DNA of 64,000 nucleotides, taken from the NCBI GenBank assembly GCA_964530225.1, contig CAZHBA010000104.1, positions 15,178 to 79,177 of the forward strand. Reading direction: 5' to 3'. Of the stretch, positions 9,958 to 63,411 are shown piece by piece; the first letter of the stretch is position 1, and every line of letters begins with the position of its first letter. The position numbers and the translations under genes are program-made. The notes under the pieces were generated by a model. It had not been told where the DNA came from. It was given only the letters and a program-made list of their open reading frames with translations, and did no database searches. The stretch is from an uncultured Rhodospirillaceae bacterium (GTDB lineage Bacteria > Pseudomonadota > Alphaproteobacteria > UBA6615).

Positions 9958-10033
9958 TGGTGCCGCCTGTTGGACTCGAACCAACGACCCCCGCATTACG
10001 AATGCGATGCTCTACCAACTGAGCTAAGGCGGC
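9958..10033 (-). tRNA. tRNA-Thr (anticodon CGU)
   Basis: Reverse complement GCCGCCTTAGCTCAGTTGGTAGAGCATCGCATTCGTAATGCGGGGGTCGTTGGTTCGAGTCCAACAGGCGGCACCA folds as a cloverleaf. It has a 7-bp acceptor stem, D-arm GCTC/GAGC, anticodon loop TTCGTAA (anticodon CGT), T-loop TTCGAGT and a 3' CCA. Confidence 0.85.
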
Positions 10034-36252: not shown

Positions 36253-36271
36253 CTGCGTGAGATACCCTGGA

Positions 36272-36535
36272 TCAGGTCCATGCCTCGGCCATTAAGGTGC
36301 CGGAAGTTTCGACGCGTTCGTGAGCCTCGCGGTAATACTCCTCTGGCTGTTCATAGCGTTCGAACGCGAGAAAACCGGTCTCCCGGTCGCGATGCACGGC
36401 AATGGACTTATCTCTTGTGCGGGTATGAAACAATTCCATACGCGATGGGTCGGCGGCGCCAATAGAAACTAGGTTCCGGAAGGCGGGATTTTCAATTTTG
36501 GACATACGGAAGTTCATTCTTGACGTGCGCGGCAT
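36272..36535 (-). CDS. Small hypothetical protein (77-87 aa)
   Basis: ORF in the 350-bp gap between two coupled glycosyltransferase genes on the same strand. No recognisable motif. Confidence 0.3.
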   Translation of the reverse strand: MPRTSRMNFRMSKIENPAFRNLVSIGAADPSRMELFHTRTRDKSIAVHRDRETGFLAFERYEQPEEYYREAHERVETSGTLMAEAWT

Positions 36536-36602
36536 ACCGTCCCAAATACACTCGGGTGATCAGCATCCACAGCACCATTAGGGCTTATATACCAGTTGGT
36601 TC

Positions 36603-49191: not shown

Positions 49192-50193
49192 TTAGCCAAT
49201 CTCTGACAGTAGTTCGGAGATTTCTTGTTCGTTCAGAAACTGGCTATTGCGGTCACTCGAATAGGTAAAATCCTCCCCAACGGGTGTTGCGTCCGGCAGA
49301 GGATCGCGCGTACGTGACCAGAATACGAAGGAGGGTTCGATGATGTAGCGGTCGTCAAGCTCGACCGTGTTGCGCGCATCATCGCGCGTGATCATGATTT
49401 CGTGCAGCTTCTCGCCGGGGCGAATTCCCACCACGCGCTGCTCCAGATCGGGCGCGATGGCGCGGGCAAGGTCGGGAATATGCACGCTCGGGATTTTTGG
49501 CACGAAAATTTCGCCGCCTCGCATCATGTCAAGAGAGGCCAGTACGAACTGCACACTCTGGTCGAGCGTAATCAAAAAGCGCGTCATGTTCGGATCGGTG
49601 ATCGGCAGATGGTCGTTGCCGTCCTTGACGAGCTTGCAGAAGAAAGGAACGACGCTACCCCGCGAATTTACGACATTACCATAACGCACCACGGAAAACC
49701 GTGTACCGTCGGTTCCGGCGACATTGTTGGCGGCAATAAAGATTTTGTCCGACGCGAGCTTACTTGCGCCATACAGGTTCACCGGGTTTGCGGCCTTATC
49801 CGTCGACAACGCTACGACCTTCTTCACCCCCGCCCTAATCGCGGCCTGCGCCACATTTTCGGCCCCGATCACATTGGTCTGGATACATTCAAAGGGGTTG
49901 TATTCCGCCAGCGGCACATGCTTTAGCGCGGCAGCATGGATGACATAGTCAATCCCGTGCATCGCGGTCACCAGCCGCTCGCGGTCGCGCACATCGCCAA
50001 TGAAAAGCCGGACCTTGCTTCGTGCCGCTGGATTGAGGCCGAGCTCCAACTCATGGTGCTTGTGTTCGTCGCGGCTGAAAACGACCACTCTGGCCGGGTT
50101 GTGCGTTGCCAGTACCTTTTTCAGAAAATTACTCCCGAAAGAGCCCGTGCCACCGGTGATGAGGACAGACGAATTCTGCAAATTCATCGCCAA
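49192..50193 (-). CDS. pseB: UDP-N-acetylglucosamine 4,6-dehydratase (inverting), PseB/FlaA1 family
   Basis: VLITGGTGSFG, …VRDRERL…IHAAALKHVPLAEYNPFECIQTNVIGAENV…ALSTDKAANPVNLYGASKLASDKIF…TRFSVVRYGNVVNSRGSVVPFF…, near-identical in motif order to Campylobacter/Helicobacter PseB. 333 aa. Confidence 0.85.
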   Translation of the reverse strand: MAMNLQNSSVLITGGTGSFGSNFLKKVLATHNPARVVVFSRDEHKHHELELGLNPAARSKVRLFIGDVRDRERLVTAMHGIDYVIHAAALKHVPLAEYNPFECIQTNVIGAENVAQAAIRAGVKKVVALSTDKAANPVNLYGASKLASDKIFIAANNVAGTDGTRFSVVRYGNVVNSRGSVVPFFCKLVKDGNDHLPITDPNMTRFLITLDQSVQFVLASLDMMRGGEIFVPKIPSVHIPDLARAIAPDLEQRVVGIRPGEKLHEIMITRDDARNTVELDDRYIIEPSFVFWSRTRDPLPDATPVGEDFTYSSDRNSQFLNEQEISELLSEIG

Positions 50194-50746
50194 AAGAACC
50201 CTCTAAAATTCTAGAAAACAGCGTCAGGTCGAAGGTGGAAGCCTTCGCCATCGCCTATTCCGGGCCAAGTAATCTTGGGCCGGGGTGTATCTTAGATAGA
50301 AATTGAAAGACCTGGAGGCGAGACACATCCCCCGTTCGTAAAGCTACCGCACTCCCGCTCCTCTGAACCGAGGGGGAGTGCTTCCGCCGAAAAGGATTGG
50401 TACCACGGGCAAAATCGCACGGCAACTGTGTAGGTGCCACCATGACATATCATAGGTCGTATTTTGAAAGGTGGTCGCACGATTCACCGCTAACGGCGAT
50501 ACACGACGAAACGGATATTCGAGCGCCCTCGCAGCAACGTCCGTCTCTCCCTTGTCAACGGAAAGTCGTTCACGCATGTGTTGCTTGGAATGTTAAAATA
50601 GGAATCCGAGACTATCGCTGTTCGCTTCGTAGAGAGTACCACCGACAGCGCCTTGTTCGCGACCGTCCTGTCATGCTTACCTAAGGCCCACCTTCACGCG
50701 CCACACCCCAAGTAAATGCGGCCAATATCAGCGCCACCAAATCGAG

Positions 50747-51658
50747 TCAGCCCAACGCACAATCAACTAGCCTGTTGTAAACGCCATCCATTTTTTGCTT
50801 TAGGGATGGATCGGCCTTCCCCCAATCAAGCGTGCGATCTTTTTTCGGCTCCCGAATATCGCCCAGAAGGGAATCGGTTTTGGGCCCGAAATTCATACCA
50901 AAAAAATCGCAAATTTTACCGAGATCTGATTTAGCGTCCTGAACAAAGCGATCATAGTCAATTATCAAGTTGAATGTGGCCGCGTCTACCTTGTCATATT
51001 GATGAATGTAAGCAAGGCAGCAACGGTCGATAGGCGTCATAGTTTTCCAGTCGGATTCATATTTCGGCTCCAACCAGAAAGGAAAGTTGAATTTCCTGTC
51101 AGACTTTAGGGGCCATTTTAGCGAGGGGCCAGTGAGCGTGCTGTCGTCAAACCAGCCTTTTATCAAGATCGAGGCCACAACGCTCTCGGGCTGTCGAACA
51201 GTTGCCAGCATTTTCATTTGCGGATAATAGCCGGATAGAGTTCCTGCAAGATGAGTCATTTCAGGAATCTTGAAGGCAATTCGTGACTGTAACGAAGCCT
51301 CCACCAAGTCCCGATGTTTATGAGGTGTACGTTGACGTGCTTCGACGTCCGAAGGCTCTTTCATCGTCAAAATGTGAGTCAAATCCGCTTTATTGAGATT
51401 GAGATTTCTCCCTGCGAGGGCGGGAAGCAAGCAGTCCTCGTACAACGCCGCTTCGAACAGCAATTGCCATTGTTCGCGGGGAAGATCTTCGATCAGGGGA
51501 AGCAATACGTAACACAAAGGGGGTTCGATAAAGATTTCCGTACCGGCGAATGAACCCACAAGCCGGGCCATCATGGTCGTCCCGGTTCTCATCGCACCTG
51601 TCAAAAAAATGGCCTGCGACACCGCTGTGCTCGCTTCGGGAAGAAGGCGAAGTGTCAT
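50747..51658 (-). CDS. Sulfotransferase-family protein
   Basis: 5'-PSB-like PAPS-binding loop IFLTGAMRTGTTMM near the N-terminus. Later …RQPESVVASI… region (3'-PB-like). 303 aa; lower GC than the flanks. Confidence 0.6.
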   Translation of the reverse strand: MTLRLLPEASTAVSQAIFLTGAMRTGTTMMARLVGSFAGTEIFIEPPLCYVLLPLIEDLPREQWQLLFEAALYEDCLLPALAGRNLNLNKADLTHILTMKEPSDVEARQRTPHKHRDLVEASLQSRIAFKIPEMTHLAGTLSGYYPQMKMLATVRQPESVVASILIKGWFDDSTLTGPSLKWPLKSDRKFNFPFWLEPKYESDWKTMTPIDRCCLAYIHQYDKVDAATFNLIIDYDRFVQDAKSDLGKICDFFGMNFGPKTDSLLGDIREPKKDRTLDWGKADPSLKQKMDGVYNRLVDCALG

Positions 51659-51688
51659 GAAATCCGGTGTTCTTCGGTATGGCTAATT

Positions 51689-52876
51689 TCAAACATCACT
51701 GAGTGGCGTATCCTGGAAAAATTTTTGACGTGGCAAATCCCACATCTTGGATTGGGAAAGAATGTCTGTAAACCGCCGGCCGGAATCACCGTCACCAAAT
51801 TCGATGGCGGCGTCGACGCGGTCAGGCAGGGACTGGATGGCCACAAGAATTTCTTCCTTTTTTGCCTCTACGTGAGCAATTGAAGGGCAGAAACTACGAT
51901 TTCTCTGTCGGGTTCCTATGTTGATGCTGGGTACACCAAACACCGGAGCTTCGCGGACACCAGAACTGGAATTTCCAATAATGAAGCGTGCATTTTTCAT
52001 CAGGGTGAGAAAATATTTGAAACGGATAGAGGGATAAAGAACGACATTATCTTTTGCCGCAAATCGCTCGAGTGTTTCAACGAGGGTTTCTGCACCGATA
52101 TCATTGTTAGGCCGTATGGCAATAACATTGCCGCCATGTTCGTCTAGTGCCGATAGGACCTCCTCGAACTGCTGCCCAATATTTCCGGTCTCGGTCGTAA
52201 CCGGATGGAACAACAGAATAGAATAATTCGTGAAGGACAAATCGTAGTGTTGTTGAACCTCCGAAAGCGAGGGCAGGTTTTCACTTTTCATCAGATCGAC
52301 TTCGGGAGAACCAATCACGAAAATGGTTTGTTCTGCTTCACCCAGCTGCAAAATTCTCGTCCGGGAATCCCGATTGGCTACAAAATGAATGTGGGAAAAT
52401 TTGGTCACCGCATGTCGAATTGACTCGTCGATGGTTCCGGAGACTTCGCCACCTTCGATATGCGCCACCCGCGTATTATTCATAGCGCCGGCAATAGCTC
52501 CCGCCAGGGTTTCGACCCGGTCTCCATGAACTACAAGCATGTCCGGTTTCCGCTCATTCAGGTAATGGCTCATGGGGACAATGGTGTTGGCCAGAACGAC
52601 ATCCATTTTTGACGACGTCGATGATTCCTGATTGAAAATCGGGAAGACCACCTTGTGCCCCGATTTATGAATTTCATTTATAGTATAACCGTGGCTCTCC
52701 AGCATGTGCATACCGGTGGCGATAATCTCGATTTCAAAGCTTTCAGTCGCCTCAAGGCTCTCAATCAAGGTTTGCATCTTGCCGTAGTCGGCACGGGTTC
52801 CCGTAAGGAACGCCACTCTCTTTACACGGTCTGGCTGCTCACTAGTCACTGACACAATTCCAGGATAATTGTTCAT
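51689..52876 (-). CDS. neuC: UDP-N-acetylglucosamine 2-epimerase (hydrolysing), NeuC/LegG family (start uncertain: ATG 52942/52876 or GTG 52816)
   Basis: …VAFLTGTRADYGKM…, …VHGDRVETLAGAIAGAMNNTRVAHIEGGEVSG… and …HPVTTE…, the hallmark NeuC (epimerase_2, hydrolysing) motifs. Confidence 0.75.
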   Translation of the reverse strand: MNNYPGIVSVTSEQPDRVKRVAFLTGTRADYGKMQTLIESLEATESFEIEIIATGMHMLESHGYTINEIHKSGHKVVFPIFNQESSTSSKMDVVLANTIVPMSHYLNERKPDMLVVHGDRVETLAGAIAGAMNNTRVAHIEGGEVSGTIDESIRHAVTKFSHIHFVANRDSRTRILQLGEAEQTIFVIGSPEVDLMKSENLPSLSEVQQHYDLSFTNYSILLFHPVTTETGNIGQQFEEVLSALDEHGGNVIAIRPNNDIGAETLVETLERFAAKDNVVLYPSIRFKYFLTLMKNARFIIGNSSSGVREAPVFGVPSINIGTRQRNRSFCPSIAHVEAKKEEILVAIQSLPDRVDAAIEFGDGDSGRRFTDILSQSKMWDLPRQKFFQDTPLSDV

Positions 52877-53891
52877 GTTCTTCAAGATCGCGCGTGGCGG
52901 TCTTTCCCACAACGGCCTCGTATTCATTTGCCAGAATTTCACCTGTCCCTGGACGCTTTACCCAGACGTTTTCACGCGTGAATTTATCGCCTTTGGTAAT
53001 TGCCCTTGTTGCGACGACACAGGCATAAGCGAACGCAATCGTCGGAGCTTCGTCTTCGAGAATATCCTTGGAGCCACCCCGCGCTTCAAATATCGCCCGG
53101 CTCCCCTTGACCAGGTCTGCAAGCTCAGGAGGCGACATTGAAATCGAAATGTCGGGGCCCGGCCATGACTTGTCTGAAGTGAAATGACGCTCAACAGCAA
53201 CGGCCCCCAAAGCCACGGCGGCCAGCGCAGCATAATTATCCAGAGTATGATCGCTTAACCCAATCATTTCAGTTTGAAACCGGTTCTTCATATCCTGCAT
53301 GGCGCCCAGCCTGACAGCCGAATAGGGCGTTGGATAAATGGACGTACAATGCAAAAGTAGAAGCGGTATATCGGCGGCGCGGATTATATCCACCGAGCGT
53401 TCAATGGAAGCGAGGTCGTTCATGCCGGTACTGAGAATAACCGGCCTTCCGAATGACGCTATATGTTCGACAAGGGGATAGTTATTGCATTCTCCAGAAC
53501 CGATCTTATACGCCCCGACATTCATTCCCCTGAGTTCATCGGCAGCCGCGCGGGAAAATGGCGTAGACAAATAGACCATACCCTTTTCTTCGGTATATCG
53601 CTTGAGCAAAATATCTTCGTCCAGGGTTAATGCGCAGCGCCCCATGATGTCCCAGATGCTTTCCTTGGCATTGCCTGGAATGACCTCGTTGGGGATCATT
53701 TCATCTTCAATAACATGGCGTTGAAATTTGACGCATTCACAGCCTGTAGCCGCCGCGTCATCGATCATCTGGTGAGCTTTCTCTATCGAACCCTCGTGAT
53801 TGATGCCGATCTCGGCAATGATCAACGGCAGCTGATTCGACCCAACCTCACGGTCGCCGAGAAAAAAGGGTTTATCTGTATTTACAGTCAT
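52842..53891 (-). CDS. neuB: NeuB-family N-acylneuraminate/legionaminate synthase
   Basis: From ATG 53891 (MTVNTDKPFFLGDREVGSNQLPLIIAEIGINHEGS). …VILSTGMND…, …LLHCTSIYPTP…, …GLSDHTLDN… and a C-terminal SAF domain. ATGA overlap with neuA upstream. Confidence 0.8.
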   Translation of the reverse strand: MTVNTDKPFFLGDREVGSNQLPLIIAEIGINHEGSIEKAHQMIDDAAATGCECVKFQRHVIEDEMIPNEVIPGNAKESIWDIMGRCALTLDEDILLKRYTEEKGMVYLSTPFSRAAADELRGMNVGAYKIGSGECNNYPLVEHIASFGRPVILSTGMNDLASIERSVDIIRAADIPLLLLHCTSIYPTPYSAVRLGAMQDMKNRFQTEMIGLSDHTLDNYAALAAVALGAVAVERHFTSDKSWPGPDISISMSPPELADLVKGSRAIFEARGGSKDILEDEAPTIAFAYACVVATRAITKGDKFTRENVWVKRPGTGEILANEYEAVVGKTATRDLEEHEQLSWNCVSD

Positions 53892-54628
53892 GGGTTCTTG
53901 TCCAGAAACGGAAGTTTTACGTATCCCCCGATCAGCAAGAATTCTCCCAGAGGAAATTCTAGCGGGCCATCGGCATCGAATCCCCAAATGGTGTCAACTA
54001 GAATTGGCAGGGACGGGTTTGCAAATACGAAGTCCTGTTCGAGGCAAGGTAGGGCGCGCAATACGATTACGTTTCCAAAAAGAAAGTGCTTTTGCTTTTT
54101 CTGTTTATTGTAGTTTTCGCGGATCAACTCCGGTTCCGAAAAACGCACATACCCTTCTTCTATCACCCGTTGGTTCATTGCGTGGAGTTGATGCGGGCAA
54201 TCGGTCACAGTCTGCGACGACCCCGCCTGAGAGTCTTTCTTCAAGACCGCAATGCAGTCGGTTATATGCTGCGGCAGTATGAACGGCGACGTCGGCTGAA
54301 GAAAGGCGATGTATTCCGGGATCACCCCCTCGCGGTCCTGTACCGTTTCCAGAAAATCGCGAAACACATCCATGACAGGGGTCATGTCACCGCCCAAGGC
54401 GTCCGGACGACCAATTGTTTCGATTTGCAGTTTCTCGCAATTTTCTCTGATTTCCCTGGAGTCGGTGCTACAAATTATTCGTGTGACGTCAGAACATGCC
54501 TTCGCTGCCAGTACACAGTAATCCATCAACGGCCGGCCAGCGAAAGGATGGATGTTTTTCAACGGGATGCTCTTGGAGCCGCCACGGGCGGGGACAAACC
54601 CCCAACACTCGCCTTTTTTGACATTCAT
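53888..54628 (-). CDS. neuA: N-acylneuraminate cytidylyltransferase (CMP-nonulosonic acid synthetase)
   Basis: GFVPARGGSKSIPLKN… and …IAFLQPTSPF… (CTP_transf_3). 246 aa. Confidence 0.75.
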   Translation of the reverse strand: MNVKKGECWGFVPARGGSKSIPLKNIHPFAGRPLMDYCVLAAKACSDVTRIICSTDSREIRENCEKLQIETIGRPDALGGDMTPVMDVFRDFLETVQDREGVIPEYIAFLQPTSPFILPQHITDCIAVLKKDSQAGSSQTVTDCPHQLHAMNQRVIEEGYVRFSEPELIRENYNKQKKQKHFLFGNVIVLRALPCLEQDFVFANPSLPILVDTIWGFDADGPLEFPLGEFLLIGGYVKLPFLDKNP

Positions 54629-54668
54629 AAGATCGCGCCCGCTTTAACTGAAAAAATTCGTCTGAGCA

Positions 54669-56033
54669 TCATGGTCTTGCTTCCTGAACAAGATGCTCAA
54701 TCCGGTCACAATAGGTACCGGTTGCTGAACTGGTAATACTGGAAACGTATTTTTCGAAAATCGCTCGTCTTTGCAACCCAACTTCATCAGGCACGACAGG
54801 GTTCCTCAAACAATCAAGATAAAGATTTTTCAGCGCGACCCTGTCTTCCGCGATATCGAAAAGATCAAACTCATCCTCCAGCATAATATTGCCTTTATAT
54901 GCCGGCGCCCTCATCTCTTTCGTAAACGGGATAATGACGCGTTTGTTCGCAATGGCGGCCTCAAGGAGCACGGTTGAGCCATAGCCACAAACAACTGTGG
55001 ACTGAAGAATAAGTCTTTGTGAATCGGCATCGGGTTCGATCGTCAAGTTTGGCAACTCGTCAAGATCAAAATTGGCTAAGGTCAGGGTCTCGACAATTCT
55101 AGTTTTCCAAGACCCTCCCCATTTTGGCTTAATAACAAACCGCACCTCCGGATTTTCAGAAGCCAGCTCGGCAACGACCACGTGACACATGTCGAATGTC
55201 TCAAAAAAGCCGATCTCCCTTGATGCGGGAAACGGTTGGGGACCACCAAAAAGAAGACCAAGCCCAACACCGGGAGCGAAAGAAAAAAACGTCACCAGGG
55301 GCGGGACTTCCCGATCAACGATGTGGTTTTCGATTGAGTCGATGTAGTCATCCATCCTCATGCAACCGAGGGCCTCGACATTTGCGGGAGCTACGTATCC
55401 GGATGCGCAGAATGCCCGCTGAACCAATGGATTATGGACAATGAGGTGCGTCCCGTGAAATTTGCCAAGCGAGGAGGACCAATCCACAAATCTCTTCTGC
55501 AATGCACTGCTAACGACCAAGTTTTCCTTATGCAATGTCACCGCCGGTGTGCCAATCTCATGAGAAATTGCGGCCCAATCGTAATCCTGCGGATAATCAA
55601 CGCAGGCATTAACAACGCAATCAACACGTAACGCCTTAAACAGATTCGGCAGGAAATTTCGGAGGAAATTTCGGTACTGCTTCTGGCCATGTTCAAAGCG
55701 TTCGTCTTCATAAGGACGAAATACCGTCCTGCGTTCGACACCCCTTGGATAGAACTGACTGTACATAATACCCAGCCATTTGAATCTAAGGGCCAGGACC
55801 CTGAATCTGCCAGTACTAGACAGCAGTTCCAGGTCTTGTCTGAAGCGGTCGCTAGTCAGAGCTAGAATTGTTATCTGTGGGTCGCCAGGAGACTTAATCT
55901 CTTCAATAATTCGGCGGAAAAGCAAAACCACTGGCCAGGAAACGCCAAGGCGTACCAACACACGGAATAGCAGCTTCAGCGGCAAACGGAAAAAACCAAC
56001 GTCGGTCGCTAAAGAAATCAGTCGGTCTCGCAT
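54669..56033 (-). CDS. Membrane-anchored TagF/Capsule_synth-like GT-B protein (paralog A); candidate nonulosonic-acid/polymer transferase
   Basis: N-terminal TM helix (VLVRLGVSWPVVLLF). C-terminal …RFVIKPKWGG… / …LILQSTVVCGYGSTVLLEAAIANKRVIIP… resembles the KPHP…TDYSS motifs of the TagF/KpsS-type fold. Shares ILAL(T/S)…DLE(L/A)L, GCMRMD and RA(I/V)FEKYV blocks with the 56848-58197 gene. Confidence 0.45.
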   Translation of the reverse strand: MRDRLISLATDVGFFRLPLKLLFRVLVRLGVSWPVVLLFRRIIEEIKSPGDPQITILALTSDRFRQDLELLSSTGRFRVLALRFKWLGIMYSQFYPRGVERRTVFRPYEDERFEHGQKQYRNFLRNFLPNLFKALRVDCVVNACVDYPQDYDWAAISHEIGTPAVTLHKENLVVSSALQKRFVDWSSSLGKFHGTHLIVHNPLVQRAFCASGYVAPANVEALGCMRMDDYIDSIENHIVDREVPPLVTFFSFAPGVGLGLLFGGPQPFPASREIGFFETFDMCHVVVAELASENPEVRFVIKPKWGGSWKTRIVETLTLANFDLDELPNLTIEPDADSQRLILQSTVVCGYGSTVLLEAAIANKRVIIPFTKEMRAPAYKGNIMLEDEFDLFDIAEDRVALKNLYLDCLRNPVVPDEVGLQRRAIFEKYVSSITSSATGTYCDRIEHLVQEARP

Positions 56034-56061
56034 AACGTCCAGTTTTGTAGATCACTCAAGA

Positions 56062-56796
56062 TTAGTGGCCCCGCTCGACAATATCTGACAGTTTCCACAA
56101 CCCTAGACACTTTCCTTTGTGCCGTTCGTGGCTATTGTCCAGCTCTTCATCGATAATTTTTAGCGGCTCCGGGAAATTGAATGGTGGCAAAGTCATGTTC
56201 AATGGCCGCCACATGCCCGTAACAATGTCTTCATTCTTCTCGATCGGTGGGAATGTTGTTGCCAGCAAATAGGTGGAATCACTGCAGACAAAATTTTTAA
56301 TTGCCGCCTTGATGTCCCTGTTCGACAAATGAACCAGTGCATCCCTACACAGCAGGAGGTCTCCGGTTGGCGGCACTGTTTGGCAGAAGTCCATTACCAG
56401 AAATTCTCGATTATTGTTCCCGAACTTCTCGCGATTAGCTTCAATCAGGGGCTCAACAATATCGCATCCAATATAGCGACAATCCTGGATATCAATATCC
56501 TGCATCCAGAAAAAGTCGCCACAGGGCACATCGAGAAGGGTTTTAATATCGAGCTCTGCCAAGATTGCAGGCAAAGTTTCCCGTATAGCTCTTGGCCCAT
56601 TCAGACCAGACCCAGCACCAGAGCGTGAATGCGTGTTGCTCCATCGATTGGTGTGAAAATACTCCGAGAAAATTACCTGACGATCCATTGACGCCAGGCG
56701 ACGCCTTCTGAGCTTCCTCAGAAGGCGAGCCTTCAACATTGCAAGCCGGGAAATTGGTGGAAACGCCCAAACTAATTTCTGTCGGATAGTTGTCAT
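56062..56796 (-). CDS. Class I SAM-dependent methyltransferase
   Basis: Motif I LLDVPCGDFFWM and downstream acidic motif II (…YIGCDIVE…). 244 aa. Confidence 0.6.
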   Translation of the reverse strand: MTTIRQKLVWAFPPISRLAMLKARLLRKLRRRRLASMDRQVIFSEYFHTNRWSNTHSRSGAGSGLNGPRAIRETLPAILAELDIKTLLDVPCGDFFWMQDIDIQDCRYIGCDIVEPLIEANREKFGNNNREFLVMDFCQTVPPTGDLLLCRDALVHLSNRDIKAAIKNFVCSDSTYLLATTFPPIEKNEDIVTGMWRPLNMTLPPFNFPEPLKIIDEELDNSHERHKGKCLGLWKLSDIVERGH

Positions 56797-56847
56797 GCCG
56801 GTTCAATTCGGTTTTTCCATGGATTGGGCATCAACAAGCCCGTGAAC

Positions 56848-58197
56848 CTAAACGGAAACAGCCTCCACTCTGGCACCCTGCATTAAATCGATTGTTTGCT
56901 GCCTTTCTCGGGACAGCTTGCGGAAAAAGTCGACATAACGCCGTACGGCGTTGCCGTCCAAGGCAGTAACGTATTTTTCAAACACGGCACGCCGACCCGG
57001 CATCAACTCGTTATCCACCAACGGATTTTCCATACGCAGCGACAGCAATCTTTCGAGCGCCTGTCCGTCCTTGGCGACGTCAAAATACTGGTGGGCGTCG
57101 CGGAAGCGGACGGTCCCGCGGATCGATTGCTGGTCGAACACCGTGAAAACCGGCACGATAACCGGTTTCCCAGCGACACCGGCTTCCAGCAGCGTCGTCG
57201 TGTTCATGCCAAGAATGACATCACTGACCCGGATCGCTTCATGCGCGTCGAGCTGGGCGTTGAACTCCACATTCCCAACCTGCTCCAAATTCAGTCCGGA
57301 TCCGACCAGCGCCTTTTCGACTACGGCCCGCTCATAATTAAGCTGCTTTAGCTTGGGTTTAATGATGAGCCGGTAATTCGGATTGCGAGCGAAAAACCTG
57401 ATGAGTGAGCAGTAGAGTTCTTGAAAATAGGCGTCCGTCTCTTCGGGGCTGGCAACATGTTGAGCGGTCGTGAAGAAGGTCGCGGTCCCTCCATTCGGGG
57501 TTTGGTTAAATGCGCCGGCTTCGATTTCGCGCAAAAAACTATCCATCCGCATACACCCCATCGCCCATGTCTGATCATCGCGCGAATACCCCTCCGCAAC
57601 GCAAAAATCCCGTGCCGAGGTGGTGTGAACCAGGAAGTGGTCGCCCTGAAAACGGCCTAACCTTTCGAAGAAAATCCGCATTTGGCTCTTAATTTTATTC
57701 GATGAAGTTAACAAGCCCTCGCGGAAAATCGTACAATAGGGCACGTTCAGGGCCATCGTAGCGCGGCCTAAATCAATATCCGCCGGCGTGCGGATGTGAA
57801 ACGAGATCACGCTATCGCAGGGCCGTAATCGGAAATAACTTTGCAGCACCCGTCCGTAGAACTTTATTAGCCTCTGTTTGGCTTTCTCGAAGCGGCTACC
57901 GGGAGCGGGGTTCATCACGTCACGATTACGGAACCGGGATCCGTAGAAGGCAAGAACCAACGCGGTTTGCCACCAGACCGGAAACAGATAAACCTCTACC
58001 TCGCCACTGTCGGCAAGCGCCTCAAGATCGCCACGGAATCCAAAATGCGACAAGGCGAGAATCCGCAAAGGCTCCGGCGAACGCATGGGAACGGAACTGG
58101 GCTTACGTACAGTACGCCAAGCAAGAAAGCGCGCCCAAACCAGCGCGGGTAACAAAGTCACGGCGAGACGCAAGACAAATCGAAGAATTAATGTCAT
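56848..58197 (-). CDS. Membrane-anchored TagF/Capsule_synth-like GT-B protein (paralog B)
   Basis: ATG 58197 (MTLILRFVLRLAVTLLPALVW) gives an ATGA overlap with the upstream cytidylyltransferase stop. The longer ORF-track start 58341 would overlap that gene by 148 nt. Paralog of 54669-56033. Confidence 0.45.
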   Translation of the reverse strand: MTLILRFVLRLAVTLLPALVWARFLAWRTVRKPSSVPMRSPEPLRILALSHFGFRGDLEALADSGEVEVYLFPVWWQTALVLAFYGSRFRNRDVMNPAPGSRFEKAKQRLIKFYGRVLQSYFRLRPCDSVISFHIRTPADIDLGRATMALNVPYCTIFREGLLTSSNKIKSQMRIFFERLGRFQGDHFLVHTTSARDFCVAEGYSRDDQTWAMGCMRMDSFLREIEAGAFNQTPNGGTATFFTTAQHVASPEETDAYFQELYCSLIRFFARNPNYRLIIKPKLKQLNYERAVVEKALVGSGLNLEQVGNVEFNAQLDAHEAIRVSDVILGMNTTTLLEAGVAGKPVIVPVFTVFDQQSIRGTVRFRDAHQYFDVAKDGQALERLLSLRMENPLVDNELMPGRRAVFEKYVTALDGNAVRRYVDFFRKLSRERQQTIDLMQGARVEAVSV

Positions 58198-60873: not shown

Positions 60874-61362
60874 TCATACGACTCTAATGTGACTGAGCGG
60901 TGTCGTGACCTTGACTTGACGACCCATCAGGTGAAGCAAGACCTCGGCACGCCGATGTCCAGGTAGGCGAATAATTACACCGAACTGCTGATCCAGCGGG
61001 CCATCGGCCAGAACGACTTTATCCCCGGCCCGCAGTGAGGGATCTTCTGGCTGAAGCATGATCAGCCCGTCCGCATTTTCACGGCTCATGATTTCCTCGA
61101 CAACACCGGCAGGCACAGCGCTTGGTTTGGGTCCAAACTGCACGAGATTGGCGACGCCAAAAGTACCGTTCACCGACCGCCAGCGCGCCGTTTCAAGATC
61201 CAGTTCCACAAAGAGGTAACGCGGAAATAGCGGGATACGGCGAACGTTCGCTCGGACACCAGCAATATAAGGGCAGTAGCTGCGAAAACCCTGCCGCTGC
61301 AGGTTGATTTCGGCCACCCGCTCTGAGCTTGGCTTCGTCCGGACGACAAACCAGCAGCTCAC
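60874..61362 (-). CDS. NusG-paralog transcription antiterminator (RfaH/UpxY/LoaP-like)
   Basis: GTG 61362 (GGAGA RBS 7 nt upstream) gives (M)SCWFVVRTKPSSERVAEINLQRQGF…, the NGN-domain start typical of NusG paralogs. C-terminal KOW-like segment (…GDKVVLADGPLDQQFGVII…). The 500 nt upstream within the same long ORF are low-complexity Gly/Arg/Cys-rich and not protein-like. GTGA overlap with the regulator gene upstream. Confidence 0.65.
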   Translation of the reverse strand: MSCWFVVRTKPSSERVAEINLQRQGFRSYCPYIAGVRANVRRIPLFPRYLFVELDLETARWRSVNGTFGVANLVQFGPKPSAVPAGVVEEIMSRENADGLIMLQPEDPSLRAGDKVVLADGPLDQQFGVIIRLPGHRRAEVLLHLMGRQVKVTTPLSHIRVV

Positions 61363-62030
61363 TTTAGGTCTCCACGATTTACCAGCCCAGCCCGAGAAAT
61401 CTTCAACAGCCCAGCAGCAAATACATTTTGCTTGCCGAGCCTCTCTGACCACAGGTCGTAACTCTTCTGGGGGGACCGCATATCGCTGATGATAACCGCC
61501 TCCACCGAGTCCAAGTCCACGAGATCGGCAACCACTGGCAGACCCGCAACCCGACCCCCGGCCGCCGAAGCATCTACAATGCCGGTAATTTCCAAGGTGC
61601 TGTCCAGTGCGGTCAGGGCCATAATCTCGGCCAAATCTCCGGCTCCAACCAAGGCAAGCCGTTTTTTTTGATGCTGCTCCGCTAACGCGCAAACTTCCTT
61701 GGCCTGTTCTCGCGCGAGCCGAAAAAATTCCAGCGATGTGGAAAGATACTCCCCCGTCAGCCTTGCTTTTTCCGTAAACCCTATTGGCGTTAAGTAATAG
61801 GCATACCGATTGGCAGGCACTTGCTGGACCTTTACCCAACCTTTCTTGATGCATCTTTTCAGATAAGCGTTGGCGAGGCCCAATGCGATTCCAAGCTCTT
61901 TTGCCAGACTGCGTTGGGAAAGAGTGCTGCTTTCTTCAATCGCGGACAGCATCCCGAGCGTAATCGTTACCTCGTTGGAGGTCTGTTCATCGGCTGTATC
62001 TAGCTCCAGCTTTCTCTTGTTATCGTTCAT
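61359..62030 (-). CDS. Winged-helix transcriptional regulator with C-terminal Rossmann-like domain
   Basis: N-terminal wHTH (…LSQRSLAKELGIALGLANAYLKRCIKKGWV…) and C-terminal …RLALVGAGDLAEIMALTAL…ITGIVD… domain. 223 aa. The start codon lies inside a GTTCA-N5-TGAAC palindrome. Confidence 0.55.
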   Translation of the reverse strand: MNDNKRKLELDTADEQTSNEVTITLGMLSAIEESSTLSQRSLAKELGIALGLANAYLKRCIKKGWVKVQQVPANRYAYYLTPIGFTEKARLTGEYLSTSLEFFRLAREQAKEVCALAEQHQKKRLALVGAGDLAEIMALTALDSTLEITGIVDASAAGGRVAGLPVVADLVDLDSVEAVIISDMRSPQKSYDLWSERLGKQNVFAAGLLKISRAGLVNRGDLK

Positions 62031-62061
62031 ACTATGAACATAGAGTGTTCACGCCATGAAC
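62025..62061. promoter_or_regulatory. Two tandem inverted repeats GTTCA-N5-TGAAC (62025-62039 and 62047-62061) in the divergent promoter region; candidate operator
   Basis: Perfect 5-5-5 palindromes GTTCATACTATGAAC and GTTCACGCCATGAAC spaced 22 bp centre to centre. The first contains the ATG of the minus-strand regulator. They lie between the divergently transcribed regulator/NusG operon and the 62326 gene. Confidence 0.5.
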
Positions 62062-62325
62062 GTCAAGCGTTGTGCCGTTGTGCGGACAGTCATAATCACC
62101 GCTGCCTTAACACTGTCTTAACTAAGATGTCAGCGAATCATGGTAAGGACCCGCAATGATCATGACTGCCCCAGTTTCATTCTTGGCGCATCGCGCCATG
62201 TTGATTGGTCTGGTAACAAGAGGCAGAGTGGCCCGGGGGATTTCACGCCGAGTAATTTCTATGCTTGAGGTTGACAGAAGCGGCGCGTTAACAAAACACC
62301 CCCTTTACGCACATAAGATAAATCC

Positions 62326-63411
62326 ATGACGAGTGTAAAAATCATCGGAGCCGGGTCGATTGGCAACCACCTGGCGCATGCCGCGCGTAGCAAAAGCTGG
62401 GACGTGACACTTTGTGATATCAACCCCGAGGCCCTGGAACGCACCAAAACATCGATTTATCCGTCACGTTATGACAGTTGGGATAATTCTATCCACCTAA
62501 CCACAATTGATGATGCACCACGCGGAGAATTTGACTGGATTTTCATCGGCACGCCACCGGACGTTCACATGACCCTTGCTCTAGACGCTCTGGAAGAGCA
62601 TCCGCGCGGAATTTTGATCGAAAAGCCACTTGCAACCCCGAACCTCGCCAATTGCCAGGATGTGATCGACAAGGCCACAGAACTCGGCGTCAGAGCATTT
62701 GTTGGCTACGACCACGTCGTTTCCAGTAGCGCCCAAAGGTTCTGCGAACATGCGCGCAATCTGAAGGGCGTCAAAACGCTCGACGTTTCTTTCCGGGAGC
62801 ACTGGCAAGGTATCTTTAACGCCCACCCTTGGCTGTCGGGCCCTTCGGATACTTATCTCGGATTCTGGAAACGCGGCGGTGGCGCTTGCGGAGAGCACTC
62901 GCATGCGCTCAACTTATGGCAGCATTTCGGCCATGTTCTGGGCGCGGGCCGGATTAATGTTGTCTCAGCTATGATGGATTACGTTGAGCGCGACGGGGCA
63001 AGCTATGATCAGCTTGCCTTGATAAACCTTGGGACTGAAACAGGCTTGATCGGACGCGTGGTCCAGGATGTGGTGACACATCCTCCGTTAAAGTGGGCCC
63101 GCCTACAAGGTGACGAGGCAGCGGTCGAATGGCAATGTATCCCCTCGCCTTATCAGGATATCGTGCGAACTAACGGCATCACACCCGACGAGGAAGTGTT
63201 CGCGAAAACACGGCCGCAGGACTTCATACAGGAACTTGACCATCTCGAGCATGTAGTAACCACAGGCGACCTATCGCCGATCGATCTGGAGCGCGGCCTG
63301 GATTCTATGCTGGTAATAGCCGCAGCGCATATTTCCGCCCAGCAGGGTTGTGCCGTTGAGATCAACTATGAAGTGGGATATTCCAGCGAGGCGTTACGGC
63401 CCACCCCGTAA
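62326..63411 (+). CDS. Gfo/Idh/MocA-family NAD-dependent oxidoreductase (sugar-nucleotide dehydrogenase-like)
   Basis: VKIIGAGSIGNHLAHAA Rossmann start and …ILIEKPLA… motif. 361 aa. Confidence 0.65.
   Translation: MTSVKIIGAGSIGNHLAHAARSKSWDVTLCDINPEALERTKTSIYPSRYDSWDNSIHLTTIDDAPRGEFDWIFIGTPPDVHMTLALDALEEHPRGILIEKPLATPNLANCQDVIDKATELGVRAFVGYDHVVSSSAQRFCEHARNLKGVKTLDVSFREHWQGIFNAHPWLSGPSDTYLGFWKRGGGACGEHSHALNLWQHFGHVLGAGRINVVSAMMDYVERDGASYDQLALINLGTETGLIGRVVQDVVTHPPLKWARLQGDEAAVEWQCIPSPYQDIVRTNGITPDEEVFAKTRPQDFIQELDHLEHVVTTGDLSPIDLERGLDSMLVIAAAHISAQQGCAVEINYEVGYSSEALRPTP

Follow-up and report, generated by a model that had tools for sequence, protein, structure and literature searches.

A candidate three-part control module of winged-helix regulator, RfaH-like antiterminator and hairpin-ops element in alphaproteobacterial polysaccharide clusters

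We analysed a 64-kb stretch of DNA from an uncultured Rhodospirillaceae bacterium, hereafter called the window, in which the gene for a winged-helix regulator and the gene for an RfaH-class NusG paralog head a long minus-strand cluster for a nonulosonic-acid polysaccharide, as the initial annotation of this DNA had proposed. Comparison with related loci points to a three-part control module for the long polysaccharide cluster, which we consider probable and which is built from known kinds of parts: a regulator that would repress its own promoter through palindromic operators, an RfaH-like protein encoded directly behind it, and a hairpin followed by an ops element at which this protein would act. 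At the level of sequence, the combination is conserved across hundreds of alphaproteobacterial species.

The comparison drew on 504 relatives of the regulator obtained from a scan of one genome per species, mostly from Rhodospirillales and other Alphaproteobacteria in marine and freshwater metagenomes, with a few cultured or complete genomes among them (Hwanghaeella, Pacificispira). For the comparison of loci we used the best 80 of the 504 relatives (designated L001 and so on), mostly metagenome-assembled genomes of Rhodospirillales. The analysis shows the gene identities, the conserved pair, the conservation of the operators with their position in the promoter and that of the hairpin-ops element, and we infer the protein that binds the palindromes, repression in preference to activation, the transcription start, the ligand, the loading of the RfaH-like protein and the extents of the transcripts.

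The regulator and RfaH-like gene pair

The two genes at the head of the cluster are the following.

61359-62030, minus strand: regulator gene, 223 residues, with a winged helix-turn-helix at about residues 12-80, a long helix at 82-119 and a Rossmann-like domain at 124-205
60874-61362, minus strand: RfaH-like NusG paralog, 162 residues, with a GTG start at 61362

The TGA stop codon of the regulator gene (61361-61359) and the GTG start codon of the paralog (61362-61360) have 4 nucleotides (nt) in common, forming a GTGA overlap. An RfaH-like gene lies immediately 3' of the regulator on the same strand in 78 of the 80 loci, with an exact 4-nt stop/start overlap in 26 of 79, and the comparison of loci identifies the two genes as a conserved two-gene unit. 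Homologues of the regulator with equal length and the same two-domain layout number more than 6000. Public databases name the proteins of the pair 'DNA-binding MarR family transcriptional regulator' and 'transcriptional antiterminator RfaH' or 'NusG family protein'.

The regulator matched the Pfam family HTH_24 above its cut-off (E 2.5e-9; 37 bits against 21.9) and stayed under those of the MarR-type families PF01047 (MarR; 18.6 against 24.6) and PF12802 (MarR_2; 23.5 against 27), as well as that of the NCBIfam model TIGR04176, 'MarR family EPS-associated transcriptional regulator' (65.8 against 88 bits). Its AlphaFold2 model, with a predicted local distance difference test score (pLDDT) of 87.4, consists of the winged helix (12-80), a 38-residue helix and the Rossmann-like alpha/beta domain (124-205). 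A G-x-[GS]-[DE]-L-A-E-I motif is kept in the regulator family, and an acidic residue is usually found after the second strand. The protein resembles autorepressors of the MarR/PadR type in its winged-helix fold and in the predicted palindromic operators at its own promoter, and it differs from MarR proteins by the additional C-terminal Rossmann-like domain of about 100 residues, which they lack. A further likeness is to Rex, the redox-sensing repressor composed of a winged helix and a Rossmann NAD(H) sensor, with which the regulator shares the N-terminal winged helix, the C-terminal Rossmann-like domain, a GxGxxA-type motif and palindromic operators. We draw this parallel as an analogy only. 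The operator sequence of Rex is not that of the regulator palindromes, no Rex-specific Pfam or NCBIfam model matched the regulator at E <= 0.01, and Rex was absent from its top 50-60 structural matches.

The initial annotation had described the second protein as carrying NGN and KOW domains. Its NGN domain was borne out by the hidden Markov model (HMM) check that had been named for it (Pfam PF02357, E 4.1e-17, 62.9 bits against a cut-off of 22.2), whereas Pfam returned no KOW domain at E <= 0.01, although a C-terminal barrel is predicted. RfaH is the best model for this protein, and E. coli RfaH, likewise an NGN-domain NusG paralog, is the closest solved structure (E 1e-16); the assignment of the pair to a winged-helix regulator and an RfaH-class paralog was thereby upheld. 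The protein scored below the cut-offs of the RfaH model NF006534 (79.6 bits against 124), UpxY NF033644 (63.1 against 100) and LoaP NF033641 (30.2 against 125). It is comparable to UpxY of Bacteroides, LoaP of Firmicutes and TaA of Myxococcus in that the paralog heads the long polysaccharide or secondary-metabolite operon that it would serve. It differs from UpxY and LoaP in that its scores against their HMMs lie far under that against RfaH and in that the cis element of the window family is an ops-type DNA sequence.

In E. coli RfaH, K10, H20, R23, Q24, T72 and R73 contact ops, according to structural work of 2018. At these positions, K10, R23, Q24 and T72 of the RfaH-like protein are as in E. 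coli, and R23, Q24 and T72 are conserved across the clade (77 members). The clade differs from E. coli RfaH in the HTTT motif, which is replaced by R-W-R-A/S, and in further pocket residues that are considered below. The AlphaFold2 model (pLDDT 86.5, from a 30-sequence alignment) combines the NGN domain with a C-terminal five-strand beta-barrel. The predicted barrel strands lie at 115-118, 127-132, 138-145, 148-155 and 159-161, with a second fold state possible on an alignment of this depth. E. coli RfaH has an autoinhibiting alpha-hairpin as its C-terminal domain, whereas that of the window paralog is predicted as a beta-barrel. According to a 2026 preprint (PMC13015549), 'monomorphic' RfaH homologues are constitutively active and are found within or beside long operons. 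The predicted barrel matches these homologues. The paralog is probably non-autoinhibited, and loading independent of ops is a conceivable course in the window's subclade.

Palindromes and predicted promoter upstream of the regulator

Three predicted elements overlap at the start of the regulator gene.

62025-62039, no strand assigned: candidate proximal operator GTTCATACTATGAAC, covering the last three -10 bases, the predicted start and the ATG
62047-62061, no strand assigned: candidate distal operator GTTCACGCCATGAAC, with one base common with the -35 and filling 14 of the 18 spacer bases
62037-62066, minus strand: predicted sigma-70-type promoter, with -35 TTGACG at 62066-62061, an 18-nt spacer and -10 TATGTT at 62042-62037

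The initial annotation had recorded two perfect palindromes with the regulator ATG (62030-62028) inside the proximal one. We confirmed that they are the sole exact matches to GTTCA-N5-TGAAC in the 64 kb, far beyond chance (about 0.06 expected for 10 specified bases), with their centres 22 base pairs (bp) apart. Counted with at most one mismatch, the palindrome is present upstream of the regulator in 79 of the 80 loci, and L001 has no sequence upstream of the gene. Two copies per locus were found in 49 cases, three in 20, one in 10 and four in one. The copies are most often 23 bp apart (48 cases), less often 22 bp (18), 24 bp (9) or 21 bp (6). Across the loci the half-sites hardly vary, and the five spacer bases are free. 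Exact GTTCR-N5-TGAAC sites numbered 155 in 26 kb of sequence upstream of the regulator against 14 in the other 568 kb of the same loci, an enrichment of about 240-fold. The conservation of the palindrome in orthologous promoters, a check put forward with the initial annotation, is thus accompanied by strong enrichment.

A blind consensus scan picked the same TTGACG/TATGTT hexamer pair as the promoter. The palindromes have asymmetrically conserved flanks, pointing to promoter elements and not to a longer operator: TTGACG directly adjoins the distal palindrome in 53 of 70 loci, and the spacer between the palindromes ends in GTAnt or TAt, giving a TAnnGT -10 element to which the proximal palindrome contributes its first two bases. 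Within the subclade, where the regulators are about 62-88% identical, TTGACG, TATGTT and the half-sites of both palindromes are invariant across five loci and the neighbouring sequence is not alignable. The palindromes span the predicted promoter from the last -35 base to about +5, which is the layout expected for a repressor. Autoregulation by the regulator via the palindromes, as suggested at the outset, is well supported by their near-universal presence with free spacers inside a conserved -35/-10 promoter.

The transcription start is predicted at the A of the ATG, near 62030 and 7 nt past the -10 element. There is no Shine-Dalgarno sequence before the regulator ATG, and reading of the sequence found no alternative ATG, GTG or TTG start between M1 and M27; with a start at the ATG, the regulator mRNA is therefore probably leaderless or nearly so. 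Residues 24-26 (T, L, G) of the regulator are invariant in 30 homologues. The initial annotation had expected an ops-like site in the leader of the regulator. This expectation was not borne out: a predicted start at or next to the ATG leaves essentially no leader, and in most relatives with an ops element it lies past the RfaH-like gene. We also considered a start codon inside a palindrome as a rule of the family and rejected it, as it is true in only 16 of the 80 loci and is a trait of the subclade.

The operon of the regulator and the divergent operon starting at 62326 share a 295-bp intergenic region, and the palindromes had been proposed to control this 62326/NeuB3 operon as well. Our results do not support such control. 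The divergent gene appears to have a conserved block of its own:

62262-62293, plus strand: conserved block TGCTTGAGG...CGCGTTAACA upstream of 62326, found in the subclade alignment, a candidate separate promoter

A palindrome scan of the intergenic region found none in this block, which lies about 200 bp from the window palindromes, and the distance between block and palindromes varies widely among relatives.

Other palindromic sites were encountered away from the regulator promoter. A third site of the operator consensus GTTCR-N5-TGAAC, GTTCGACAAATGAAC, lies at 56320-56334 of the window inside an open reading frame (ORF) of 244 residues (56062-56796; no Pfam match), and it may be due to chance, with about 0.2 expected in 64 kb. 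Six loci (L008, L011, L016, L027, L037 and L043) have an exact GTTCR-N5-TGAAC inside the regulator coding region, at about +244 to +304 from the start of the match, and in five of the six, L043 being the exception, an ATTCAC-N3-ATGAAC-like site also precedes the anchor codon by 220-270 nt. The intragenic palindrome of that subclade could be an extra operator or could reflect shared ancestry of a coding motif. At 1734-1782 of L055, about 320-340 nt upstream of the regulator, the AT-rich palindromes GTTCATATAATGAAC and GTTCATTATATGAAC constitute one long perfect hairpin, which gave spurious microRNA matches in Rfam.

The hairpin-ops element of related loci and a candidate in the window

Comparison of orthologous loci for an ops-like motif, as the initial annotation had suggested, was productive. 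By searching the related loci for the ops core, we found a hairpin followed by ops, with the family consensus TGCGGTAGCGTG, in 46 of the 80. The extended form of the family ops is TTCACCCGGACTGCGGTAGCGTGG, also written TTCACCCGGAC-TGCGGTAGCGTG-G, and several loci have the exact E. coli ops 12-mer GGCGGTAGCGTG. In about 40 of the 46 loci, ops is located 50-90 nt past the stop codon of the RfaH-like gene on the same strand. In four loci (L029, L046, L054 and L056) it is reversed and belongs to the leader of the divergent operon, upstream of the regulator. L063 and L004 have it at a greater distance downstream, with one or two additional GTTCA-N5-TGAAC palindromes just before it, which hints that the regulator might also gate a second promoter there.

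The hairpin-ops elements were evaluated by register-optimised pair counts with a shuffle control and by a weight matrix built from the 46 family elements; a structural covariance model was dropped, as MAFFT introduced end gaps instead of loop gaps, leaving the 5' arms out of register. All 46 elements have a hairpin that ends 0-3 nt before ops or overlaps ops positions 1-3, and a contiguous stem of at least 7 bp is present in 67% of the elements compared with 7% after shuffling of the 5' flank. Loops measure about 2 to 7 nt or longer, and the register of pairing differs between elements over a span of 10 positions. Some changes in the arms are compensated, as in GCAGTCCGGG/CCCGGACTGC of L030 compared with GCACTTCGGG/CCCGAAGTGC of L064, and L040 has a fully different stem at the hairpin position. 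The variable loop and register, the compensated arms and the L040 stem speak for a hairpin and against a duplex protein site, although the inner arms are strongly conserved in sequence, which limits covariation and leaves some doubt about the hairpin.

The element is like the E. coli ops/JUMPstart in that TGCGGTAGCGTG is almost identical to GGCGGTAGCGTG and lies in non-coding sequence ahead of long polysaccharide operons. JUMPstart elements of gamma-proteobacteria also have a conserved stem-loop (Weinberg et al. 2010, PMC2864571). The alphaproteobacterial elements differ from JUMPstart RF01707 in giving no Rfam match: with a library that should include RF01707, there was no match in the window at gathering score other than a tRNA gene, none at E <= 10 in 50150-50800, and none at E <= 1 in seven loci with a canonical hairpin-ops.

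In the window, a candidate hairpin-ops occurs at a distance of 11.7 kb from the start of the cluster, 10.5 kb past the RfaH-like gene.

50340-50351, minus strand: ops-like element TGCGGTAGCTTT (E. coli ops, GGCGGTAGCGTG), ahead of the PseB-like gene
50349-50381, minus strand: hairpin GCACTCCCCCTC-GGTTCA-GAGG-AGC-GGGAGTGC, whose 3' arm ends at ops C3
50194-50746, minus strand: 553-bp non-coding gap with no credible ORF, located at a G+C step and holding the hairpin-ops

The TGCGGTAGCTTT site is the top site of the window by the family weight matrix (15.2 bits at 50339-50355; runner-up 9.3), and the eligible intergenic sequence on the correct strand is estimated at only about 1.6 kb. The hairpin context (76 nt) has a minimum free energy of -31.7 kcal/mol (z = -2.3). 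A 13-mer of the window ops, GGAGTGCGGTAGC, is identical to the element of L012. By scanning metagenomes for the stem and core, we found the same stem with the variant GCGGTAGCTTT beside a divergent RfaH-like gene on the unrelated contig L093 and, in a further lineage, a similar element behind a short MarR-like gene. We therefore lean towards a functional role for the window site.

A functional ops at 50340 would place the action of the RfaH-like protein from 50.3 kb on, over the distal 17 kb and not over the whole 29 kb, and the operon model of the window is redrawn so that this action is expected from there and not from the regulator promoter. The initial annotation had read the run as one very long transcript of 29 kb. 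This reading is unproven, since the loading site would divide the cluster into a proximal part of 11.7 kb and a distal part of 17 kb. Scans for sigma-70 promoters and intrinsic terminators between 32.5 and 60.9 kb gave counts equal to those in shuffled sequence and were uninformative on transcript boundaries.

No ops follows the RfaH-like gene in the window, L001, L002, L081 or L084, and we found no canonical ops in the region upstream of the regulator, the gap between the RfaH-like gene and the ABC (ATP-binding cassette) exporter, or the divergent leader. Two near-matches were rejected: CTGCGCTAGTGCG at about 60820, a weak ops resemblance of less than 8 bits that is not conserved in L001/L084, and GGCGGTAGCGGA at L081 3485 (minus strand), the sole intergenic near-match there, which is without the invariant T11.

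Several further observations touch on the ops element. On the plus strand of the divergent intergenic region, CCCGGGGGATTTCACGCCGAG at 62228-62250 is similar to the family hairpin in its 5' part (CCGGGGGA...TTCACCCGGA). It lacks a following ops core and may be a relic of a divergent-strand hairpin-ops such as that of L029, L046, L054 and L056. In L011, the hairpin-ops about 70 nt past the stop codon of the RfaH-like gene is canonical except for a G in place of T6 of ops (TGCGGGAGCGTG). As T6 is the flipped-out base that E. coli RfaH recognises, this variant could be informative. Contigs of a different lineage (L086-L096) carry TTCACTCCCCAATTCACCCGGGAGTGCGGTAGCCTG, for example at 1070-1100 of L090, where it directly follows a short MarR-like gene (651-989) with about 34% identity to the winged-helix part of the regulator. 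No RfaH-like gene was found on the examined sequence of the L086-L096 contigs, and the link between winged-helix regulator and ops may extend past the two-domain family. Nine loci (L010, L024, L033, L050, L051, L059, L071, L073 and L077) are without ops after the RfaH-like gene. Within the first 60 nt past its stop codon, the next gene in these loci is preceded by G/CTATAA with the ATG 7-10 nt on, which looks like the -10 element of a leaderless mRNA. The regulator/RfaH pair would there form a two-gene unit by itself, and its ops targets would lie elsewhere.

The proposed module, its alternatives and its cargo

We propose that a single sigma-70-type promoter would drive the regulator gene together with the GTGA-coupled RfaH-like gene. 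Winged-helix dimers of the regulator most likely bind both GTTCA-N5-TGAAC operators, which at 22 bp apart would present the same helix face, and this binding would exclude RNA polymerase, leaving the regulator/RfaH pair self-repressed. Binding of a nucleotide-type ligand to the C-terminal Rossmann-like domain, with its GxGxxA motif and the acidic residue after the second strand, would release the repressor. The RfaH-like protein would bind elongating RNA polymerase at ops on the non-template strand, like E. coli RfaH, and would sustain the processivity of the polymerase and make it resist premature termination. In most relatives the hairpin-ops would be on the same transcript, and the factor would act on its own operon. 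In the window, the effect would start at 50340-50381 and cover the genes from the PseB-like gene to 32923.

Several results weigh against the module as drawn. The Rossmann-like domain has no specific family match, and its top matches, to diaminopimelate dehydrogenase and to the N-terminal domain of NeuD, are weak; ligand sensing is therefore a guess, and binding of a nucleotide-type ligand by the domain, though reasonable to suppose, is no more than that. The top NCBIfam match of the RfaH-like protein, RfaH TIGR01955 (residues 4-158), reaches 106.7 bits and lies below the curated 144.5. Two residues of the E. coli ops pocket are changed in the protein (H20N and R73F), and nearly all of the 77 clade members have a hydrophobic or aromatic residue (I, V, F or Y) at the position of R73; this kind of replacement is also seen in the 44 analysed members with a hairpin-ops at their loci. 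As to the window site, its ops does not match the family consensus at positions 10 and 12, the TTCACCC arm is missing, and 5 of 40 shuffled windows reach 15.2 bits somewhere, such that its significance from sequence alone is modest. No credible ops was found within 10 kb on either side in the closest relatives, L081 and L084, and a simple sigma-70 scan gave no promoter-like site in the 553-bp gap.

Part of this evidence would suit a different course in the window's subclade, in which the RfaH-like factor is ops-independent and constitutively open and loads on the polymerase of its own operon during its translation, the 50340 site being a relic or chance. The predicted barrel in place of an alpha-hairpin, as in the 'monomorphic' homologues (PMC13015549), the modest significance of the site and the absence of ops past the RfaH-like gene in the subclade or near the gene pairs of L081 and L084 are all in line with this explanation. 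We nevertheless think it unlikely, since the 50340 site shows the family layout of hairpin then ops, is on the correct strand and is located in the sole large non-coding gap, its 13 bases are identical to those of L012, the stem with the GCGGTAGCTTT variant is seen again beside the RfaH-like gene of L093, and the fold state predicted by AlphaFold2 is drawn from an alignment of only 30 sequences. The inverted repeat before ops could also be taken as a duplex protein site or a terminator and not as a hairpin working with ops. Both arms (GGGTGAA and TTCACCC) are strongly conserved with limited covariation, and the core GTGAA...TTCAC resembles a Rex-type box. Against this, loop length and pairing register vary beyond what a dimer site would tolerate, L040 and the window have entirely different stems in the same place, and no T-run follows the stem, and we give this explanation little credence.

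Two other explanations concern the palindromes. The regulator could act as an activator, or it could have a dual role and control the divergent 62326 operon too via the same palindromes. Activation is possible for MarR-type proteins, the two operons share their intergenic region, and an ops in the divergent direction lies upstream of the regulator in L029, L046, L054 and L056. The operators, however, cover the -35 edge, the spacer, the -10 and the start site, which is the geometry of a repressor, and the divergent gene has its own conserved block, distant from the palindromes and without one, at a variable distance, which makes this explanation improbable. That another protein, for example a global regulator, binds the palindromes, with the winged-helix gene as a mere passenger, appears hardly credible. 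The GTTC/GAAC half-sites do recall the alphaproteobacterial LexA box. The LexA box, GTTC-N7-GTTC, is a direct repeat, whereas the palindromes are inverted, and the sites track the regulator gene through nearly all loci with strong enrichment upstream of it, with only one further GTTCR-N5-TGAAC site in the window. Binding by the regulator itself, with repression of the gene pair, thus remains the explanation that we prefer.

RfaH/ops antitermination and winged-helix autorepressors are already known as kinds. The joining of a self-repressed, Rossmann-bearing regulator, a probably non-autoinhibited RfaH paralog and a hairpin-ops on one predicted transcript is described in the literature searched by no more than one sentence. 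Wang et al. 2020 (mBio, PMC7593976) found that 18% of rfaH genes are alphaproteobacterial, and one sentence of theirs was all that we found in the literature on the regulator family or on alphaproteobacterial ops. It describes the RfaH cluster 'CL4', which is probably the same gene association as in the window; the window protein may belong to CL4. That sentence deals with gene-function categories and contains no operator, promoter, ops or regulator architecture. Detailed knowledge of RfaH comes almost entirely from enteric bacteria, in which it is a lone gene that acts in trans, and a question of interest is how its target specificity and autoinhibition evolved. With the factor, the ops signal and a dedicated regulator on one predicted transcript, and with cis elements mapped to base resolution by comparison, the module offers a natural and widespread test case for the proposed cis-acting stage, and cultured carriers exist (Hwanghaeella grinnelliae, L071). 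It also provides a predicted operator, promoter and candidate sensor domain for a regulator family of more than 6000 members with no studied representative, which probably controls the production of surface polysaccharides in abundant marine Alphaproteobacteria.

A more far-reaching and tentative view, which we regard as possible and somewhat doubtful, is that the regulator/RfaH/hairpin-ops cassette is a self-contained licensing unit and represents an ancestral cis-acting form of RfaH control. A ligand-sensing repressor would gate the promoter, a non-autoinhibited paralog would load at a hairpin-assisted ops pause just past its own gene, and the unit would have spread with polysaccharide loci through hundreds of marine alphaproteobacterial species. 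If so, the Rossmann domain would tie the expression of capsule or O-antigen to the pool of nucleotides or nucleotide sugars.

The genes that the module is presumed to control follow the gene pair on the same strand.

32923-60776, minus strand: genes for polysaccharide/nonulosonic-acid biosynthesis and export, the presumed cargo of the module

Together with the pair, they form a run of about 25 co-directional ORFs (32923-62030), in which many junctions are 4-nt overlaps or short gaps; an apparent 350-bp gap at 36253-36602 contains an ORF of 87 residues. The genes found, an ABC exporter, three cytidylyltransferase-domain genes, two NeuB-type synthases, a UDP-GlcNAc 2-epimerase, a PseB-like dehydratase, aminotransferases, acetyltransferases and glycosyltransferases, identify 32923-62030 by sequence as a nonulosonic-acid polysaccharide locus. 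Between 50 and 58 kb the G+C content is about 0.50, compared with 0.55-0.63 elsewhere (about 0.59 beyond the step at the gap). This segment (50000-58000), which is bounded downstream by the 553-bp gap with the hairpin-ops, contains genes for a NeuB, an epimerase and a cytidylyltransferase, a sulfotransferase-like gene and three ORFs that match no Pfam family. Recent acquisition of the segment as a serotype-specific cassette may have displaced ops from the RfaH-like gene. Outside the cluster, the tRNA gene at 9961-10033 (minus strand; RF00005, 71.4 bits) is the sole match of the window to Rfam at gathering score.

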